Below are positions 19,278-64,000 of a stretch of 64,000 nucleotides of DNA, piece by piece. The stretch's first letter is position 1, and each line of letters begins with the position of its first letter. The notes beneath the pieces were generated by a model that saw nothing but the letters and a program-made list of their open reading frames with translations, ran no database searches and was not told where the DNA came from. Position numbers and translations under genes: made by a program. Source of the DNA: Clostridia bacterium (GTDB taxonomy: Bacteria > Bacillota > Clostridia > Christensenellales > CAG-138); contig JAFZYC010000078.1 of assembly GCA_017616435.1 (NCBI GenBank), positions 29,716 through 93,715 on the forward strand, read 5' to 3'.

Positions 19278-22103
19278 TTATTTTCTGAGTATTTCATTAA
19301 GAAATTGACCGGTGTAGCTTTTTTTGCACGCGGCCACTTCTTCGGGAGTGCCGCATGCGACAACGGTTCCGCCGTCATTACCGCCCTCGGGACCGAGATC
19401 GATTATGTAGTCGGCAGATTTGATCACGTCGAGATTATGCTCGATAACGAGCACTGAGCTCCCGCCGTCGCAGAGCCGCTGCAGTATCTGCAGAAGCCTC
19501 TCTACATCGGCCACATGTAGACCGGTCGTCGGCTCGTCGAGCACGTAGAGCGTACGCCCGGTGTTCTTGCGCGCAAGCTCGGTAGCAAGCTTTACTCGCT
19601 GCGCCTCTCCGCCCGAAAGCGTTGTGGAGGGTTGCCCGAGCTTGATATAGCCGAGGCCGACGTCGCAGAGCGTTTCGAGCTTCTTTGCGATCTTGGGCAG
19701 CGGCTTAAAGAAATGATAAGCCTCCTCGGCGGTCATGTCAAGCACTTCCGCGATGGTCTTGCCCTTGTATCTGACCTCGAGCGTCTCCCTGTTGTATCGC
19801 TTGCCCTTGCAGACCTCGCACGGGACGTATACGTCGGAAAGGAAATGCATCTCGATCTTAAGTATACCGTCGCCGGAGCAGGCTTCGCATCGTCCGCCCT
19901 TGACATTGAAGCTGAACCTTCCGGCACTGTAGCCGCGCAGCTTCGCATCGGGCGTCTGTGCGAATACCTCCCTGATGAGATCGAACACGCCCGTATAAGT
20001 TGCGGGGTTGCTCCTCGGCGTGCGTCCTATCGGTGACTGGTCGATGTCTATGATCTTATCCAGAGCTTCGACGCCTTCGATGGAATCGTGATCGCCGGGA
20101 CGAATCCTTGCGCGGTTAAGGTCGCGAAGCAGGCTCTTTTTGATTATCTCGTTTACAAGGCTCGATTTGCCCGAGCCGGAAACGCCCGTTACGCAGGTAA
20201 ACACGCCGAGCGGGATACTGACGTCGATATTCTTGAGATTGTTGACGCGAGCCCCCTTTACAGTGAGCCACTTGTCTCCGATACTGCGGCGTTTTTCGGG
20301 TATCAGAATAGCGCGCTTTCCTGTCAGGAACTGGCCGGTAACCGATTCCGGAACGGCCATAATCTCCTCAAGTGAACCCTGCGCGATAATGTTTCCGCCG
20401 TGTTCGCCGGCGCCGACGCCAATATCCACGATGTGATCCGCAGTTCGGATCGTTTCCTCGTCATGCTCAACGACTATGAGCGTGTTGCCGAGGTCCCGTA
20501 GCCCGCACAACGCGTCGAGAAGCTTTCTGTTGTCGCGCTGATGCAGCCCGATGCTTGGCTCGTCGAGTATGTAAAGAACGCCAACAAGGCCGGAGCCTAT
20601 TTGAGTAGCGAGCCTGATCCTTTGCGCTTCGCCGCCAGAAAGCGAAGAGGACGAACGCGAGAGCGTAAGATAATCGAGACCTACGTTGATCAGGAAACCG
20701 AGCCTCGAATCGAGCTCCTTGACGATCTGCTCGGCTATCATAGCCTCCGATTGTGTGAGCTTGAGGCCGTTCAAGAACTCCTTTGCCTTCCTGATGGACA
20801 TATCCGAAACGTCGGCGATCGAAAGCCCGCCGACAGTCACGGCAAGCGTTTCGGGCTTAAGCCTCTTTCCGTGGCAGGCAGAACAGGGCGTGTTGCGCAT
20901 GTACTGCTCAAGCTCCTGCTTTGCCCAGTCGGACTGCGTTTCCCTGTAACGCCTCTGCAGATTGGGTATAACGCCTTCAAATGGCGTGTCGAACGTTCCG
21001 CTGCCGTATTCCTTCTGATACTTGACATGGAGCTTCTTTTCTCCGGTGCCGTAAAGCAGCGCGCGGCGTCCGGCTTCGGGGATATCTTTCCAAGGCGTAT
21101 CCCCCGTGAAGCCGTATTCCTTTTCGATCGCAGTCAAATACATGCTCGCGATAGTGTTTTTGGAATTGCTCTGCCAGCCTGAAACGGAGATCGCGCCGTC
21201 GTTGAGCGAAAGCTTCGTATCTGGAACGACGAGCTGCTCGTCGATGGTAAGCGTGAAGCCCAAACCGGTACATTCCGGACATGCGCCGAATGGGCTGTTG
21301 AACGAGAACATCCTCGGAGTGAGTTCCTCGATGCTTATACCGCAGTCGGGACATGCGTAGTTCTGCGAAAACAGAAACTCCTCCCCGTCGGTCTTCACTA
21401 CCTTTGCCAATCCGTCGCCGAAACTGAAGGCGGTTTCGAGCGAATCGCTCAGTCTCGAAGCGACGCCGGGCCTTACAACGAGCCTGTCGACGACCGCGTC
21501 GATCGTATGCTTCTTCTTTTTGTCGAGATCCGGCACTTCATTTATGTCATAGATCTCACCGTCGACTTTTACACGGACGTAACCCTCTTTGCGTATCCGT
21601 TCGAATACGCTCTTATGCTCGCCCTTTCTCGCCCTTACGACAGGAGCTATAACGAGTATGCGCGTACCCTCTTCAAACGCCATGACGCGGTCGACGACCT
21701 GATCTATGCTCTGTTTTTCAATGGGCTTTCCGCACTGAGGACAATGCGGATGACCGATCCGCGCATAAAGCAGACGCAGATAATCGCTAATTTCCGTAAC
21801 AGTGCCGACTGTCGAACGGGGATTGTTCGAAGTGCTCTTCTGATCTATAGATATCGCCGGCGAAAGCCCCTCTATATGATCGACTTCGGGTTTATCCATC
21901 TGGCCCAAAAACTGGCGTGCGTAAGCGGAAAGCGACTCGACATATCTCCTCTGCCCCTCCGCGTAGATCGTGTCGAACGCGAGCGATGATTTACCCGAAC
22001 CGGAAACGCCGGTAAACACTATTAACTTATTTCGGGGGAGTTCAAGCGTGACGTTTTTGAGGTTGTTTTCCCTTGCTCCCTCTATATAGATGCAGTCCTT
22101 CAT
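19278..22103 (-). CDS. uvrA: Excinuclease ABC subunit A
   Basis: Two GVSGSGKSS Walker A motifs, two LSGGEAQR signatures, zinc fingers; 941 aa. Confidence 0.98.
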
Positions 22104-51469: not shown

Positions 51470-52510
51470 TCAATATGTACCTATCCCGTAGAAGAAGCAA
51501 TTTCCTTCGATAGTGGCGTAGTACTGCATGTAGCTCGCCCAAGTCGTTCCCAAATAAGCCGCCCGGTAGAAGAGCACCTTCTTGGGTAGCGTGGCTCCGT
51601 GTTCTTGGAAAACGTATCTTGCAGCCGCAAGCGTTTGCGCTGTAGGCTCAACTCCCTCCAGCGCGGATTCGGGAAGGAACTGGTTGTGCTGGAAAAGCAC
51701 TTCCGGTACTGTATCGGGGAAATGCCATGTCTCGTTCAGCACGCGGTTCAGGATAACGCTCGATATCGCACGCAGTCCGAGCTGTGTCGCGCCAGGCGCC
51801 TCAACAACGAGGAACCTCGCGACAAGTTCGACGTCCTCATCGGAGAATTGACCGGGAGAGACGGTATAGTAGGAAGGCTTAGGAGTGGGAGTAGGCGTAG
51901 GCCTCGGCGTTGCCGTGGGTTTCGGGGTCTTTGTGGGCTTGGGAGTAGGAGTTGCGGTCGGTTTTGGTGTTTTGGTCGGTTTAGGGGTTGGAGACGGCGT
52001 AGGCTTGGGAGTCTTAGTCGGCTTGGGTGCAGGAGAAGGAGTGGGCTTAGGGGTCGGCTCCGGAGTATCGGTCGGAACGGGAGTTGGCGCAGCGCCCAAT
52101 GTAATGAACTGCTTGGCAACGAATCCGGTATGGTTGCCGACTTTTACGCGGTACCATTCATCGGTCTCCCCCGTTATCACTACCTCCCTTCCGAAAAGGA
52201 GCATTGTCATAACGGCAGCGTCCTTTGAAGGCGAACGTCTGTAATTCACTCCGTTGCTGTTAACATAACCCGCAAGATCATCAAGGGGCAGTATTTCGAT
52301 CGGTTCTTCGGTAGGTTCTTCTGTCGGCACCTCGGTCGGTTCCTCGGTATCTATGATTTCGTCTGCGATGATCTCGTTATCCGAACTTTCGATGTTCATC
52401 CCGGGAATACCCGCGACAGGCACATCGATAACGGCGGTCTCGGGCGTTCTGCCGCACCCGACCGCGGATAACATGATTATCAATATAGCTGCCGCAAGTA
52501 ACCTTTTCAT
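51470..52510 (-). CDS. Lipoprotein cell-wall hydrolase (SH3 plus Hydrolase_2/SleB-like)
   Basis: Lipobox AVGC; SH3b VNYRRSPS...WYRV...GFV; Pro/Thr linker; [10 protein letters not shown]...VILNRV...NQF catalytic domain. Confidence 0.88.
51875..52087 (-). repeat. Low-complexity Pro/Thr/Lys linker (TPKPT repeats)
   Basis: [30 protein letters not shown]... with degenerate codons. Confidence 0.85.
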
Positions 52511-57949: not shown

Positions 57950-59074
57950 TTAAACAGCATATATACCATTCGGTAATTGCTTTATTATTCCCGATAATTC
58001 CATTTCTGTCAAGTATGTATTCAGTTCTGCGACCGAATAACCCAGCTTTTCGCACAGTTCGTCCGCGGATTTTTCGCCGAGCAGAAGCTCTTCGAGTATA
58101 AGCGCCTGCTCGTGAGGAAGGTCGCGGGACTTGGCTTTTACAGACGGCGGAGCTTTGAATCCGGTGAAAACGCCGTATTCATACATGATGTCGTCAACGC
58201 CGAACACCGCTTTAGCCGCGCCGCTCTTTATCAAGCCGTTAGTGCCCACGCTCATAAGATCGTTCAGCCTTCCCGGAACGGCGAAAACGTCCCTGCCCTG
58301 ATCGTGAGCGTATCCTACAGTAATGCTGGTGCCGCTGTGGACGCCCGCTTCGATAACGAGAACGCCCTTTGAAAGCCCGCTGATGATGCGGTTCCTTTGC
58401 GGAAAGCTTCCCCTTGGGGGCTTGCTGAAGGGTTTGTATTCGGATACGACCGCACCGCGCTCGGCTATCATATCATAAAGTTTATGACTGCTTTGCGGAT
58501 ACACGTCGTTTATTGCGGTACCCAAGACCGCTATTGTCGGATAATCCTTGTCGGTTGAAAGCGCGCCCTGAGCCGCTATCGAATCACAGCCCGCGGCCAT
58601 TCCCGATATCACGCAAGCGCCTTCGTTCGCTAGTTCCCTTCCGAAGTATTCCGCCATCTCCTTTCCGTAATCGGAGCATTTGCGGGAGCCGATGACCGCT
58701 ATAGGATACTTGACTTCCGCTTGAAGTCTGCCCTTGACATACAGGACAGTAGGCGGATCGTAGATCTCGCGAAGGAGCTTGGGATAATCCTCCCCCGACC
58801 TTGTTACTGCGTATACGCCGCAATTGTCAAGTGTGCTTATGAAATCATCTATGCACGCGTCGCTGCAGGATGATAAGAGCGCCTGCTGCTGGATGGGTTT
58901 TATGCCGTCGGGGAAGCGTAAAGTTCTCCCGCTGCGGGCAGAAGTAAAGAGAGGTATAAGACCGTCGTTTGCGTAGACGAGCTGTTCCGTTGAAACTACG
59001 CTGGATCCTAAAGTCATGTTCAGCCATAACCAGGCTCTGTCTTTTTCGGAATACTCTCTCATAGTCAGGATCAT
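57950..59074 (-). CDS. dprA: DNA-processing protein DprA
   Basis: IYDPPTVLYVKG, VIGSR, FPQRNRIISGLS, GRDVFAVPG, C-terminal winged helix. Confidence 0.95.
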   Translation of the reverse strand: MILTMREYSEKDRAWLWLNMTLGSSVVSTEQLVYANDGLIPLFTSARSGRTLRFPDGIKPIQQQALLSSCSDACIDDFISTLDNCGVYAVTRSGEDYPKLLREIYDPPTVLYVKGRLQAEVKYPIAVIGSRKCSDYGKEMAEYFGRELANEGACVISGMAAGCDSIAAQGALSTDKDYPTIAVLGTAINDVYPQSSHKLYDMIAERGAVVSEYKPFSKPPRGSFPQRNRIISGLSKGVLVIEAGVHSGTSITVGYAHDQGRDVFAVPGRLNDLMSVGTNGLIKSGAAKAVFGVDDIMYEYGVFTGFKAPPSVKAKSRDLPHEQALILEELLLGEKSADELCEKLGYSVAELNTYLTEMELSGIIKQLPNGIYAV

Positions 59075-60603
59075 CTTGCGCCCCAGTATTTTTCGTCAAG
59101 GCCGCGATACTGGACAGCTTCAAGAACATGCGCCTTTCCGATCGTATCCTTGCCTTCGATATCGGCGATAGTCCTTGCTACTTTTATGACGCGTGTATAA
59201 GCCCTTGCAGAAAGCTTGAACTTATAATATGCGGAATGCAGCAGCTCCTCCGCTTCTGCCGTCATACGGCAGTATTTTCGCATAAGAGGCGTTGTGAGCT
59301 GAGAGTTGAATAAGATTCCATCATCCTTATAACGCTCCTTCTGGCGCTTTCTGGCGGCCGTAACGCGGGCTCTGATGGCTGCGGATGATTCGCCGGCCTT
59401 TGCGGAGGTAAGATCGTCGTAGTTGACTTCATTCATCTCAACATGGATATCAAGCCTGTCAAGAAGCGGCGAGCTTATCCTATTACGGTATTTTTCGATC
59501 TGAACGGCGGAACAGCGACATTCCTTCGTCTTTGAACCGTAATTACCGCAAGGGCACGGGTTCATTGCGGCTACGAGCATGAACTCTGCGGGGAACTCCG
59601 TCTTTGCGGCTGCGCGTGTGATCGTGATTACACCGTCCTCAAGCGGCTGACGAAGCGCCTCTAGCACGGTCGAAGGAAACTGAGGAAACTCATCCATGAA
59701 CAGCACGCCGTAATGTGCGAGGCTTATCTCCCCGGGCAGGGCCCTCGATCCTCCTCCAACCAGCGCAGGAATGGACGCGGAATGATGCGGAGACCTGAAC
59801 GGGCGCTCGGTCACGATTCCCGTTCGCCCCTTGAGTTCGCCTGCTACGGAATGTATGCGTGTTATCTCAAGCGATTCCTCCATCGTGAGTTCCGGGAGTA
59901 TAGACGGTATGCTCCTTGCGAGCATGGTTTTTCCCGAACCCGGGCTGCCAATTAGCAATAGGTTGTGATTACCGGCGACCGCGATCTCAGCCGCGCGTTT
60001 TGCGGCCATCTGGCCCTTGATCTCGGAGAAGTCATAAGGAAACGTCTTCTTCTGCTCGCTCCATTTGAGCGGCGGATTCGGAGGGATCACTGCAGTGCCA
60101 TTAAGATGCCCGCATGCTTCGTTCAGAGAACGAACGGGGATAACGTTCATATCCGAGAAGAAGGATGCTTCCGCTGCGTTATCAAAAGGCAGCATGATAT
60201 TGCGGAAGCCGCGTTCGTGCGCGTTTATGACCATTGGAAGGACTCCGGTCACGGAACGGACTTTACCGTCCAAGGCAAGCTCGCCAATGATTATGTAATC
60301 ATCTGCTGAATGGAGCGGGATAACGCCTCTGGCGGCGAGAATACCCAAGGCGATGGGCAGATCGTAGACCGTGCCCTCTTTTCGGATATCGGCAGGGGCA
60401 AGATTTACAAGCACGCGCATCTCGGGGTAATTATACCCGCTGTTGACGATCGCAGAACGAACGCGCTCACGGGATTCCTTAACGGCGTTATCGGGCAGGC
60501 CGACAGTATCCGCGCGCTGCATGCCGCGGGAAATGTCGACCTCGACACTGATCGGACAGCCCTCTATGCCTATGAGTCCGTAGCTGTTCAGCTTTGCGAG
60601 CAT
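59071..60603 (-). CDS. comM: YifB/ComM Mg-chelatase-like AAA+ ATPase
   Basis: VGLPDNAVKESRER, NLAPADIRKEG, GSPGSGKTMLA, RPFRSPHH, NPCPCG, LSARAY. Confidence 0.94.
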   Translation of the reverse strand: MLAKLNSYGLIGIEGCPISVEVDISRGMQRADTVGLPDNAVKESRERVRSAIVNSGYNYPEMRVLVNLAPADIRKEGTVYDLPIALGILAARGVIPLHSADDYIIIGELALDGKVRSVTGVLPMVINAHERGFRNIMLPFDNAAEASFFSDMNVIPVRSLNEACGHLNGTAVIPPNPPLKWSEQKKTFPYDFSEIKGQMAAKRAAEIAVAGNHNLLLIGSPGSGKTMLARSIPSILPELTMEESLEITRIHSVAGELKGRTGIVTERPFRSPHHSASIPALVGGGSRALPGEISLAHYGVLFMDEFPQFPSTVLEALRQPLEDGVITITRAAAKTEFPAEFMLVAAMNPCPCGNYGSKTKECRCSAVQIEKYRNRISSPLLDRLDIHVEMNEVNYDDLTSAKAGESSAAIRARVTAARKRQKERYKDDGILFNSQLTTPLMRKYCRMTAEAEELLHSAYYKFKLSARAYTRVIKVARTIADIEGKDTIGKAHVLEAVQYRGLDEKYWGAR

Positions 60604-61140
60604 TTACTCTTCTGCCTTTCCTTCTTCTTTGCGTTTGAAAACGAATAGCTTGTTGAGAATAAAGTTTACCGGGATACAGATGCATGTAGCGAGCAGCGAG
60701 CAGAACAGATCCCCGGTTATGACCTTCCTGATGATCCCGGGAAGCTCAAGTCCCATCCAGTAATCGTTAAGATGGAGCAGATCTTTAAATATCTTAATGA
60801 GCCCGAATGAGATTAGAAGCACTGCGATATTGACTGTGATAAAGCTGATCTTTTCACGCGCATCCCTTCTGCGTTCTTCACGGAAGGTCCAGCTGCTGTT
60901 CAAAATATAACTGTTGAGTATGCCGCAGCCGTAGCCGACGGTCTTTGCCGCATAAACGATCCATCCGCCGCTGAAAATGAGATTCAGCACGAATGAAACG
61001 ATCGTATTGACGATCATGTCGACGACGGTATTGCTCGCGCCGACAACGGCGAACTTCAAAAGCTGTATAAGGCTCTTCCCCTTCTTGGGTTCGGTCTTCT
61101 CGGCTTTTTCGTATTCAGATTCAAAATTAATGTTTTCCAT
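60604..61140 (-). CDS. GtrA-family membrane protein
   Basis: QLLKFAVVGASNTVVD, NSYILNSSWTF, NFILNKLFVF. Confidence 0.9.
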   Translation of the reverse strand: MENINFESEYEKAEKTEPKKGKSLIQLLKFAVVGASNTVVDMIVNTIVSFVLNLIFSGGWIVYAAKTVGYGCGILNSYILNSSWTFREERRRDAREKISFITVNIAVLLISFGLIKIFKDLLHLNDYWMGLELPGIIRKVITGDLFCSLLATCICIPVNFILNKLFVFKRKEEGKAEE

Positions 61141-61149
61141 TTATCTGCC

Positions 61150-63969
61150 TTACTTCTGTATGATAGTGAGCTGTCCGTCAGTGATCTGTCGAGGCTCGTA
61201 ATCGAGGAAGCGCCAACCCATCCTCAATGTGCGGATCACGTTGCCGTCCGCGTCGCGGATCTCCCATTTATGGAAAGGAACCCACTGCAGGATTGCGATG
61301 TACTCATACGGGACTTCCATACCGGAAATGACCGGATAGAACAGTATGAACATAAGGCCGGCAATTACCATCCAGATATACTTTATCTTGGGCACTATAC
61401 CGGGCGACTGCTTCTTTTCGGCCTTCTTCAATGCATCGACGTCCTCCCAGTAGCCGATCAGATATCCGGTTGCAAGCGTGATATAAGGCACTGTAGCGAA
61501 GAAATGATACGCGTACGTGCTCCTTGTAACGAATACCCAGGGCAGCAGCGACGATGCTATGCACACGAACAGGAAGTACGGCTCAAGCGGGAATTTTCTC
61601 CTGTGGAAGATGAGCACGACGATCAAAATTAATGTCGCAATATTGCAGAACAGCCACACCGCCGGATTACCGAAAGTGCTGATCGTGCCTACGTATCCAT
61701 GCGGATTATCGTGGCCTCCTACATAGAACCATGTCGGGCGGAGATTCGCAAGCCACATCCACCAGGGAGAAGCGGCGGAGTGATCGGACTTGAGCTGGCT
61801 GTGGTAATTATACATATCCTGCTGGTTCTTGATAACGCCGCTGATATAGGTATTGACGGAATCGGTGAATCCGAGCTTGACTTCGGAAGAGGAAGCGTAT
61901 TCCTCAGTATTCGCTGCGTAGATCTGCGCTTGCCTTGCGGGCTTCCACTGAGCGGAATAGTAGCGGCAGTAGGAGGCGCAGTAAATAACAGCGGGAACGA
62001 CTATGAAGAATATGACGCACCAGCAGCAGAGCGTGAGCACGTTGCTCCAGTACTTCTTGACGAGCTTCCTGTCCTTGTACTTTGCGAGCCTGGAGAGCCG
62101 ATAGCTCTTCCTGCCCATTATGACAAGCTTGACAAAGAACATGAGCGCAAGTCCCGCTCCGGTATAGAGACAGATCCATTTGCTTGCGCATCCGAGCCCG
62201 AAGAATATGCCGGAGAGCGCGAGAGGCTTCATCATGCTCTTAACGCTGTCGCCTATGTCCATAGATATGAACTCGTACATGAAGTACGTCATCAGCAGTA
62301 TGAAGAACACGCCGTATACGTCGACAGTCGCGATCCTCGTCTGCGTAAAGTGCATGAAATCGAATGTGAACAGGAATGTCGAGAAAAGAGCAAGCTCCGA
62401 TCGTTTAAGCAAGCGTTTGCCGAAGCAGTACATTATCGGCACCATGAATATTCCAAATAAAGTGCCCATCACACGCCAGCCGAAGGGCTTCATCCCGAAT
62501 ATGAGAATGCCTAAAGCTATTATCAGTTTGCCAAGCGGCGGATGAGTCCATTCGTAAACGGACATGTTATTGATATGTTCCAGCGCGGTACGGCCGTGGT
62601 AGAGCTCGTCGAAATACATGCCGTTGAAGTAATTGGGGTACTTGGGAACGGTCTTTTGCTCATCGAAAAGCGCCGCTGCAGACTCGTCTACTGTGCAGTT
62701 GATGATTTCTCCGTTCTCATCGAAGAATACCAGTTCGTTCATTATGAGATCCGGATCATTGGGCCTTCCTGTATCGCCGCCCAATACTTCGAGCGTCACT
62801 CCCGTTGTCGCGGTCGGATCGTTATCGAGCTTCGCCCAGCGGAACATATGGCCGTATTCTGTCCTGTTTTTGGACGAGAATGCGATCTCTTCGCCGTTGT
62901 CGGTCCTTAAAACGTAATTGGTATAAGAAATGCCAGAATTCTGCCAAACCTCGGAGATCGTGTACGTTCCGCCGAAGTCTATCCTTACGGTATCACCCGC
63001 ATAACCGTTCCATGCGTTGGTCGGGAAGCTCAGCGTTCCGAGACGGAACAGAGCAATGAAACCGTAGACTACAGTCAGCGCTATGATATAGATCCTGTCC
63101 TTCTTTGTGAAGTGTAACTTCAGATCGGTCGGGTGCGGCATTACGTCGGATCTTGTGTCGAAGAAAGACCTTCCTTTAAGCTCTTGCATGGGAGAAAGCT
63201 TGCGAGCCTTGTCATTCGTATAGCTCGAAACGGAAGGCAGCGGCTCCCCTGTTTTTACGCTATTTTTGTTTTTACGGACAATGAACCAGATCGCAGCTGC
63301 AGCGATAAGAAGCGCGGCCGCGCAGACAAGGACTATCGGGAGCACGTTTCCGTTTTCATCGCCAGCGTCGTCGTCCGATACTTCGCCGCTGTAAAAAGGC
63401 ATAACGTCGCCCTCCCAGCTGTCGAGCTTTTCGATAGTGAAATCATCGAACCATGCCTGCCCGTGAGAGATCGCGCTGTATCCGCCGATACGGCAGGAAA
63501 CCACGAGGTATGTCTGCTCGGGGCCGGTCTTGCCCACGAGCTCGACAAGCGTCCAATCATTTGTGCCATATAAGCCGTCGGACGTCGCAATGATCTCGCG
63601 AAGCGCGATATTTGCTCCGGCGCCGTTTTCCACGTTCTTGGTCTTTATGTAACAGCTCAAACGATAGATCGAAAGCGGTTCAACGGCGATCTTTTGGAAT
63701 ACGGCGGCGTCGTCATCGGAATTCGCGCTTATATAGAGCACCGTCGAAGACCTATCATCATCAAACTCACAGAACGCAGATGAGTTGCCGTAGTTCTCTT
63801 TGTATTCCTCTTCGTAGGAATGGAAACTCCAAAAGCTCGGAAAATTATCCGCACCGTCGTGGTCTTCAAATCCGCCGTTCCTGATAAGGTCAGCGTTTTC
63901 GCCGAATACCGGCGAGGCGGCGGCTATTACGAATATTATGGCAAGAAGTATGGGCAGTATCTTCTTCAC
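61150..63969 (-). CDS. GT39/PMT-like lipid-carrier-dependent glycosyltransferase with an N-terminal carbohydrate-binding-like domain
   Basis: Signal peptide; LIRNGGFE CBM4/9-like domain; YFDELYH (DE motif), HPPLGK, WR, TRIA, SKW, YHSQL..H..ASPWW.W, GNPAVW; many TM helices; GTG start behind AAAGGA. Confidence 0.88.
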   Translation of the reverse strand: MKKILPILLAIIFVIAAASPVFGENADLIRNGGFEDHDGADNFPSFWSFHSYEEEYKENYGNSSAFCEFDDDRSSTVLYISANSDDDAAVFQKIAVEPLSIYRLSCYIKTKNVENGAGANIALREIIATSDGLYGTNDWTLVELVGKTGPEQTYLVVSCRIGGYSAISHGQAWFDDFTIEKLDSWEGDVMPFYSGEVSDDDAGDENGNVLPIVLVCAAALLIAAAAIWFIVRKNKNSVKTGEPLPSVSSYTNDKARKLSPMQELKGRSFFDTRSDVMPHPTDLKLHFTKKDRIYIIALTVVYGFIALFRLGTLSFPTNAWNGYAGDTVRIDFGGTYTISEVWQNSGISYTNYVLRTDNGEEIAFSSKNRTEYGHMFRWAKLDNDPTATTGVTLEVLGGDTGRPNDPDLIMNELVFFDENGEIINCTVDESAAALFDEQKTVPKYPNYFNGMYFDELYHGRTALEHINNMSVYEWTHPPLGKLIIALGILIFGMKPFGWRVMGTLFGIFMVPIMYCFGKRLLKRSELALFSTFLFTFDFMHFTQTRIATVDVYGVFFILLMTYFMYEFISMDIGDSVKSMMKPLALSGIFFGLGCASKWICLYTGAGLALMFFVKLVIMGRKSYRLSRLAKYKDRKLVKKYWSNVLTLCCWCVIFFIVVPAVIYCASYCRYYSAQWKPARQAQIYAANTEEYASSSEVKLGFTDSVNTYISGVIKNQQDMYNYHSQLKSDHSAASPWWMWLANLRPTWFYVGGHDNPHGYVGTISTFGNPAVWLFCNIATLILIVVLIFHRRKFPLEPYFLFVCIASSLLPWVFVTRSTYAYHFFATVPYITLATGYLIGYWEDVDALKKAEKKQSPGIVPKIKYIWMVIAGLMFILFYPVISGMEVPYEYIAILQWVPFHKWEIRDADGNVIRTLRMGWRFLDYEPRQITDGQLTIIQK

Positions 63970-64000
63970 AGCAGATGGTCCTTTCTGTTATTCCGACAAT

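Follow-up and report, generated by a model that had tools for sequence, protein, structure and literature searches.

A PMT-type GT39 enzyme with a CBM-like domain, its GT-C partner and GtrA: a putative lipid-linked extracytoplasmic glycosylation module in a Clostridia bacterium

What does an enzyme resembling protein O-mannosyltransferases (PMTs) glycosylate in a clostridial cell, and with which sugar? Bacterial members of glycosyltransferase family 39 (GT39) are annotated in thousands of genomes and have been studied almost solely in actinobacteria. The question is raised by a stretch of 64,000 nucleotides (nt) from a Clostridia bacterium of the Christensenellales (contig JAFZYC010000078.1, positions 29,716 to 93,715; hereafter the window), close to one edge of which a gene on the reverse strand encodes a PMT-like protein of 939 amino acids (aa) and is followed by gtrA and comM. 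We are highly confident that this protein belongs to a four-part lipid-linked extracytoplasmic glycosylation system. With less assurance, and with the protein acceptor included in that judgement, we favour a role of this system in the initiator-plus-extender O-glycosylation of Pro/Thr-rich linkers of exported proteins, by means of a non-mannose sugar carried on undecaprenyl phosphate (Und-P).

The assignment of the 939-aa protein to GT39 was supported by domain models, fold and motifs alike. Pfam matches above the gathering cut-offs were obtained for PMT (aa 448-665, 55.8 bits) and PMT_2, as well as for PMT_4TMC (PF16192; aa 711-898, 64.2 bits versus a cut-off of 32.4). Furthermore, an AlphaFold2 (AF2) model, built on an alignment of homologues, reached a predicted local distance difference test score (pLDDT) of 84.7 and a predicted template modelling score (pTM) of 0.72. 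In a Foldseek comparison of this model with the structures in PDB, ranks 1-7 were occupied by Pmt4 (C. thermophilum and yeast) and by yeast Pmt1 and Pmt2, with E-values ranging from 2.4e-12 to 2.7e-8 and a best TM-score (TMt) of 0.71 for the membrane core of Pmt4. ArnT appeared in the same ranking with an E-value of 1.5e-5 and a TMt of 0.42, and PglB with a TMt of about 0.32; since the fungal enzymes came first, a grouping with ArnT or PglB was rejected, and the PMT identity put forward in the original prediction was upheld.

With regard to sequence comparisons, a phmmer search of PDB with the single protein returned no match, and the family profile alone reached Pmt4 and Pmt1. The family-invariant blocks, namely FDE...HPPLGK, D-x2-H...R...D and R-x2-Y-x-YH, all align with Pmt4. 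In particular, YFDELYHxRTA...HPPLGK of the family profile aligns with vFDEVHFGK...HPPLGKL, the profile block FDFMHFTQTRIATIDV with LDNAHIGQTRLILLDA, and PWVLVSRSxYxYHY, which contains the R-x2-(Y/F) motif, with PFFLMARQKFLHHY, to which the loop-5 motif of the 939-aa protein itself (PWVFVTR816STY819AYH) aligns as well. The DE motif (D454-E455, within MYFDELYHGRTA) was invariant in all 50 full-length homologues compared, and it aligns with FDE of C. thermophilum Pmt4 and with YFDEIYHARTA of a Caldicellulosiruptor GT39. In the PMT of M. tuberculosis, the aspartate of the DE motif and both R441 and Y444 of the R-x2-(Y/F) motif are essential (PMC12331936). Within GT39, the 939-aa protein falls in a distinct subfamily and is not an orthologue of the Rv1002c-type Pmt.

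Along its chain, the AF2 model shows a signal peptide, a beta-jelly-roll, an acidic disordered tether, a transmembrane (TM) helix, a linker, the first TM helix of the PMT body (TM1), a beta-sandwich and finally the DE motif with the PMT core. This agrees with what had been predicted from the letters alone, as a 939-aa protein with signal peptide, TM helix, cytoplasmic linker and a PMT body carrying D454-E455 was recovered by its open reading frame (ORF), Pfam and AF2. The K/R-rich linker after the TM anchor (aa 237-288, low pLDDT) bears the positive charges of the cytoplasmic side (RKNKNSVK ... HFTKKDR), and TM1 spans aa 289-307. Because of this topology of signal peptide, TM anchor, K/R-rich linker and TM1, the DE motif is expected to be extracytoplasmic; the model likewise places the jelly-roll and the loop-1 insert outside the cytoplasm, as a PMT demands. 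The PMT core holds the D537/H540/R545/D550 block, a beta-hairpin (aa 746-765) and R816-x2-Y819.

Two domains are added to this core on the outer face. The jelly-roll, previously described as a carbohydrate-binding module (CBM) of the CBM4/9 type, is CBM-like at the level of the fold: Foldseek matched it to 4d0q (CBM70; TMt 0.71) and also to CBM4 (1gui), CBM16 and CBM61, with TM-scores of about 0.6-0.7, and the family profile A1 matched the sequence of 4d0q with an E-value of 1.4e-5. Its membership in CBM4/9 is not proven, as CBM_4_9 of Pfam scored 15.0-21.4 bits, below the cut-off of 25.9, and CBM_4_9_1 likewise remained below its own cut-off. External loop 1 contains, as an insert, a beta-sandwich of about 120 aa, which the original prediction did not mention and which is kept in close relatives. 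Its strands (aa 320-416) were modelled with a pLDDT of about 85-94, and only chance-level matches came from Pfam, run on 24 members, and from a comparison of the profile with PDB sequences. At the other end of the protein, a C-terminal three-stranded beta element (aa 900-938; window 61150-61269, reverse strand; KWEIRDADGNVIRTLRMGWRF...QLTIIQK) runs beyond the end of those relatives in which two GT-C bodies are fused.

A search of the whole assembly revealed that the module continues past the edge of the window. On the same strand, 65 nt upstream of the 939-aa gene and past base 64000, lies the gene of a second GT-C enzyme of 674 aa (L003 4751-6775, which is G000:C25:93750-95774), so that the module as first described was right in GT39 and GtrA and incomplete in this partner. 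Both proteins are 36% identical across signal peptide, CBM-like domain and tether, and the CBM fold was found by Foldseek in the partner too. The membrane body of the partner matched PMT_2 and GT87 of Pfam weakly (PF09594, 23.0 bits versus a cut-off of 25), and many of its homologues bear precomputed GT87 matches. In addition, the partner family profile matched glycosylphosphatidylinositol (GPI) mannosyltransferase 1 with an E-value of 1.3e-9, and the AF2 model of the partner (pLDDT 86.8) had yeast ALG6 as its nearest fold (TMt 0.60). GPI mannosyltransferase 1 and ALG6 are both GT-Cs that extend a glycan already in place by a hexose taken from a polyprenyl-phosphate donor, and the partner is accordingly described as a GT87/ALG6/PIG-M-like GT-C.

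Among the top homologues of the 939-aa protein, roughly one in two is a fusion of approximately 1250 aa, in which the body of the partner type stands ahead of the insert and the PMT body. By tblastn, 72 of 80 related loci had both GT-C bodies side by side or fused; at the level of ORFs, 67 out of 76 loci were paired, 46 of them as fusions and 21 in split form. The CBM-like module is optional, many Paenibacillus fusions being without it, and the arrangement observed here, with separate genes that each encode a CBM-like domain, is the less common one.

On the donor side, a GT2-type polyprenol-phosphate sugar synthase, the search for which had been proposed along with the original prediction, was indeed present. 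Seven GT2 genes were found in this genome, one of which (contig 33, 20189-21124) encodes a GtrB/CsbB-type GT2 of 310 aa with two C-terminal TM helices and is unlinked to the module. Its best models were PgfS (234.8 bits) and ArnC (148 bits), both scores lying under the equivalog cut-offs. In at least 21 of the related loci, the gene directly downstream of the GT-C pair is a gtrB whose product is 46-55% identical to this protein, and it is usually followed by gtrA; these loci belong to Paenibacillus, Cohnella, Gorillibacterium, Oscillospiraceae, Acetivibrio mesophilus and Geobacteraceae/Desulfuromonadaceae. Similarly, gtrA, whose product matched GtrA (PF04138) above the gathering cut-off, follows the PMT-like gene in at least 27 related loci. 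The full system therefore comprises GtrB, GtrA and both GT-Cs. In this lineage, gtrB stands apart from the remaining three genes, which lie between yraN and comM, and we infer that the contig-33 GtrB serves this pathway here. No GDP-mannose pyrophosphorylase (ManC) was found in this genome, which is 91% complete and in which GlgC and GlgD account for all NTP_transferase genes.

For the division of labour between both GT-Cs, as well as for the acceptor and the sugar, we infer the following course. GtrB would load one sugar, derived from a nucleotide sugar, onto undecaprenyl phosphate. The 939-aa GT39/PMT-fold enzyme, with D454 as catalytic base, would then put the first sugar on Ser/Thr of exported proteins, most plausibly within Pro/Thr-rich linkers, and its GT87/ALG6/PIG-M-like neighbour would add a further sugar from the same donor, which would result in a short chain, e.g., a disaccharide. 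On the outer face, the probable role of the CBM-like domain and the loop-1 beta-sandwich would be to hold the acceptor or to bind the product glycan.

The nearest tested relative of the 939-aa enzyme is Cbes_1864 of Caldicellulosiruptor bescii, encoded in the glucan-degradation locus of that species. Deletion of this single GT39 abolished the glycosylation of secreted proteins detectable with the periodic acid-Schiff (PAS) stain, increased the proteolysis of CelA and led to the loss of growth on crystalline cellulose (PMC6151902); a sugar-binding-like domain was described at aa 32-124 of the protein, 'in loop 1' (PMC6151902). The Pro/Thr linkers of CelA were reported to carry galactose disaccharides (PMC7142884), a report that a 2025 review found hard to reconcile with GT39 and doubted (PMC12757957).

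We compared the module with a Caldicellulosiruptor-type locus of the phylum sample (genome G402; L101, G402:C1:1948000-1967900). Here, the GT39 ORF measures exactly 1701 base pairs, which is the published length of Cbes_1864, and lies between the giant GH9-CBM3-GH5 and CBM3-GH48 genes. Its product is 28% identical to the 939-aa protein over 467 aa (E-value 1e-47), and both have in common the block L(F/V)DEQ...YFDE(L/I)YH(G/A)RTA...HPPLGK. Their loop-1 domains occupy the same position and gave a colinear but weak hhalign match (E-value 7e-4). The adjoining gene product shares 26% identity over 435 aa with the 674-aa partner (E-value 2e-25). As a side observation, this 486-aa protein, which has no Pfam match and has been published as 'hypothetical', is a GT-C homologous to the partner; the four-gene cluster (L101 5669-9813, reverse strand), which begins with GT39, continues after this GT87-like gene with those of a WG-repeat protein and a PrsA-like peptidyl-prolyl isomerase. 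In this genome there is an 8-nt overlap between gtrB and gtrA, which are unlinked to GT39 and located between two other PMT_2-type GT-C genes (L104, G402:C1:438245-442162), with which they may constitute a separate three-component system, or they may be shared.

Both loci have a Firmicute GT39 with PMT_4TMC and an extra domain in loop 1, a homologous GT87-like neighbour, and gtrB/gtrA at a distance. They differ in that the Caldicellulosiruptor enzyme has no N-terminal CBM/TM module, in the gene order (GT39 then GT87-like, the reverse of the window locus) and in the location, which is among cellulase genes and not in the slot between yraN and comM. A GtrB-type donor combined with an initiator and an extender would explain both the non-mannose sugar and the two-sugar chain length reported for C. 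bescii.

Homology to Cbes_1864 also suggests Ser/Thr of proteins as the acceptor. With a filter for S/T/P tracts, at least 12 exported proteins or lipoproteins with (TP)n or TPKPT-type linkers were identified in the genome. One of them, a predicted lipoprotein of 346 aa with a long TPKPT-type linker encoded within the window (51470-52510, reverse strand; G000:C25:81185-82225), is a candidate acceptor; of the three window proteins already pointed out as possible substrates, it alone passed the filter. Such Pro/Thr-linker proteins fit a protein acceptor and prove nothing. Support for a protein acceptor over a wall polymer comes from the presence of the module in the diderm Geobacteraceae/Desulfuromonadaceae, which are without teichoic acids. 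The proposal of a Firmicute O-glycosylation system stands insofar as a homologous GT39 of C. bescii is needed for the glycosylation of secreted cellulases, and is to be read as a suggestion where the protein acceptor is concerned.

Several points weigh against the O-glycosylation of protein linkers by a non-mannose sugar. The tested C. bescii enzyme is related to the 939-aa protein by pairwise homology, at only 28% identity, and its function is known from deletion and PAS stain, not from biochemistry; a stain after deletion does not separate direct from indirect effects. The actinobacterial Pmt equivalog of NCBIfam (NF058602) scored 90.7 bits, against a cut-off of 800. A further GT2 of 368 aa, fused to a GtrA/DPMS-type four-helix TM domain and encoded directly after mreD and a PBP2-like gene (contig 8, approximately 19872-20972, forward strand), weakly matches the polyprenyl-phosphate sugar synthases PpgS and AglJ and could be a second lipid-sugar donor enzyme, and at the completeness of this genome the missing ManC is suggestive only. 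Finally, clustering of all ORFs of the 80 related loci revealed no linked acceptor or polysaccharide gene, but only module parts and housekeeping genes, and lectin-like CBM domains are known from the GT-Cs of Emb/AftD, CBM-fused GT-Cs being typical of polysaccharide builders (EmbC, AftD).

These last observations bear on an alternative that we consider rather unlikely, namely that the pair builds or decorates an envelope glycopolymer (a secondary wall polysaccharide, peptidoglycan-linked glycan, lipoteichoic acid or exopolysaccharide), with the CBM-like domains holding the growing or the acceptor glycan. The CBM-fold domain on both enzymes, the resemblance of the partner to the glycan-acting ALG6 and PIG-M, and the lack of a linked gene for an acceptor protein among the 80 loci would be accounted for, and a general envelope role would agree with the location of the module in a core-genome slot and with its occurrence in 109 of the 201 sampled genomes of the order. 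Moreover, GtrA/GtrB systems are reported to glycosylate O-antigen and teichoic acids (PMC5836110), and GtrA/GtrB are needed for the glucan exopolysaccharide of L. johnsonii (PMC7117936). The module shares with GtrA/GtrB/GtrX and CsbB/GtcA/YfhO the logic of lipid-linked monosaccharide, flippase and GT-C. However, Gtr-type systems and the mycobacterial arabinosyltransferases EmbC/AftD act on O-antigen, teichoic acids or arabinan through GT-C cores that are not PMT-like, whereas the core studied here groups with protein O-mannosyltransferases by its 4TMC module and loop-4 hairpin, and not with ArnT- or YfhO-type GT-Cs. The homologous Caldicellulosiruptor pair is tied to protein glycosylation, the CBM is dispensable, as the Paenibacillus fusions show, and the occurrence of the module in diderm Geobacteraceae speaks against this alternative as well.

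Protein O-glycosylation by a lipid-linked sugar has a precedent in Firmicutes. Streptococcal GtrB/PgtC2 and the Pgf system of S. mutans (PgfS, PgfM1) O-glycosylate Ser/Thr-rich disordered regions (10.1101/2024.05.05.592596). In common with them, the system described here would rely on a Firmicute GtrB-type GT2, with PgfS as its best model, to make an Und-P-sugar, and on a GT-C to move the sugar to Ser/Thr-rich extracytoplasmic regions. In contrast, the streptococcal GT-C belongs to the YfhO family, of which a search of this genome revealed no member, and transfers a single sugar, with neither an extender GT-C nor a CBM.

The nearest mechanistic model is provided by actinobacterial Pmt and PimE. 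In mycobacteria, PMT (GT39) starts protein O-mannose chains, which are extended by PimE (GT87) (PMC12757957, PMC12331936). Ppm1, Pmt (Rv1002c) and PimE resemble our system in having a GT39 initiator and a GT87-type extender that use one lipid-phosphate monosaccharide on the outer face, in the DE motif, the R-x2-Y motif and the loop-4 hairpin, and in their typical substrates, which are Pro/Thr linkers of secreted enzymes, e.g., in Cellulomonas. On the other hand, the actinobacterial genes are unlinked and never fused, the enzymes have neither CBM nor loop-1 domains, and the synthase is of the Ppm1 type and uses GDP-mannose.

Classical O-mannosylation of this actinobacterial type would require that the DPMS-like enzyme of contig 8 supply polyprenyl-phosphate mannose, that GT39 add the first mannose and that the GT87-like enzyme add an alpha-1,2-linked one. 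It is consistent with GT39 and GT87 being mannosyltransferase families in all cases characterised by biochemistry (PMC12757957), with the doubts of the 2025 review about the galactose of C. bescii (PMC12757957), and with the weak synthase matches of the contig-8 fusion. Nevertheless, we regard it as improbable: in different phyla the pair is accompanied by a GtrB-type synthase, with PgfS and then ArnC as best models, the score for the actinobacterial Pmt equivalog is far under its cut-off, and CelA was reported with galactose disaccharides. Mannose as the sugar, as initially assumed, is doubtful because of this GtrB-type synthase, the failure to find ManC in a genome 91% complete and the galactose given for the C. 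bescii glycan; the donor sugar is probably not mannose.

Linker O-glycosylation with a non-mannose sugar can be formulated in a more specific way, to which we give only tentative credence. The module would represent a GT39 lineage that abandoned mannose, in which initiator and extender, often fused, use an Und-P-hexose made by GtrB (e.g., galactose) to build a defined disaccharide on Pro/Thr linkers, while the CBM-like and loop-1 domains would read the nascent glycan and set the chain length.

The organisation of the locus (Table 1) agreed with the original prediction, as ORF coordinates placed gtrA 9 nt downstream of the stop codon of the 939-aa gene and the first base of comM directly after the gtrA stop, with zero spacer. 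The dprA gene shares 4 nt with the end of comM, and topA and trmFO lie farther along; the module is thereby flanked by a housekeeping block, with ffh, rimM, trmD, rplS, ylqF, rnhB and yraN on one side and comM, dprA, topA and trmFO on the other. The spacer that separates yraN from the gene of the 674-aa GT-C contains a promoter-like site TTGATA-17-TATAAT (11 out of 12 positions; L003 6808-6836, reverse strand), and no terminator-like site was found at the gtrA-comM junction, the total number of promoter- and terminator-like sites in the region being no higher than expected by chance. Within the housekeeping block, the module may be transcribed from a promoter of its own.

The order yraN-[module]-comM-dprA recurs in about 30 related loci, and comM is absent beside the module in the gtrB-type loci (Paenibacillus, Oscillospiraceae, Acetivibrio, Geobacteraceae) and in Caldicellulosiruptor. 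A tie of the module to natural competence or DNA uptake, for which the lack of a spacer and of a terminator-like site between gtrA and comM (probably co-transcribed) and this recurring order could be cited, was rejected as highly improbable, given that the flanking genes are a housekeeping block and that the module occurs without comM in several lineages; its contiguity with comM-dprA, which had been read as the module leading into these genes, is synteny only.

Table 1. Features of the glycosylation locus, with positions in the window
Feature	Position	Strand	Evidence
GT39/PMT-type GT-C glycosyltransferase, 939 aa, GTG start	61150-63969	-	ORF, Pfam, AF2, Foldseek, family profile
Predicted signal peptide, aa 1-23, MKKILPILLAIIFVIAAASPVFG	63901-63969	-	Sequence; AF2 N-terminal helix, low pLDDT
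Extracytoplasmic CBM-like beta-jelly-roll, aa 27-182 (predicted)	63424-63891	-	Foldseek, profile
TM anchor helix, aa 209-236 (predicted)	63262-63345	-	AF2
Beta-sandwich in external loop 1, aa 317-434, directly before the DE motif (predicted)	62668-63021	-	AF2
DE motif D454-E455	62605-62610	-	Homologue alignment, Pmt4 alignment
PMT transmembrane core and PMT_4TMC module, aa 446-898	61276-62634	-	Pfam, AF2, Foldseek, conservation, profile
gtrA, 178-aa GtrA-family membrane protein, putative lipid-linked-sugar flippase	60604-61140	-	Pfam GtrA_DPMS_TM, 98.9 bits
comM, Mg-chelatase-like AAA+ protein, syntenic neighbour outside the glycosylation function	59071-60603	-	Pfam
Beginning of the 65-nt spacer toward the partner GT-C gene past the window edge	63970-64000	-	Assembly sequence

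With regard to its distribution, the module is common, not rare. In the order to which the window belongs, where the PMT-like gene was found in 109 of the 201 sampled genomes and in 7 out of 8 of its own family, most copies lie in fused frames, and families almost uniformly either carry or lack the gene. Two copies of this order carry a single in-frame stop (TAA and TGA, respectively) within the PMT-like match (G045:C1:814483-816495 and G004:C1:2222110-2223963), and may be pseudogenes, frameshifts or split genes. In Paenibacillus alone (L058, L065, L072 and others), genes for a sortase-like protein of 221 aa and a secreted protein of 269 aa follow gtrA in 5-6 loci, which may be lineage-specific synteny or point to a linked surface protein. 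Metagenome-assembled genomes of the diderm Desulfuromonadaceae/Geobacteraceae (L062, L066, L089) harbor CBM-PMT, gtrB, GT87-like and gtrA genes, the latter two on the opposite strand, which suggests horizontal spread of the module past the Firmicutes.

The locus and its relatives offer a testable model, consisting of a GtrB donor synthase, GtrA, a PMT-like initiator and an often-fused GT87-like extender, for which distinct knockout phenotypes are predicted. The GT39 Cbes_1864 is needed for the glycosylation and stability of industrially important cellulases, and a non-mannose GT39, if this reading is true, would settle the dispute over the galactose disaccharides of C. bescii CelA. Likewise, if that reading is true, the module would represent a general system for protein O-glycosylation in Clostridia, Paenibacillus and part of the Desulfuromonadales. 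As roughly half of the genomes sampled from this order of gut and rumen Clostridia carry the module, it would shape the surface and secreted proteome in a large part of the gut and rumen flora.

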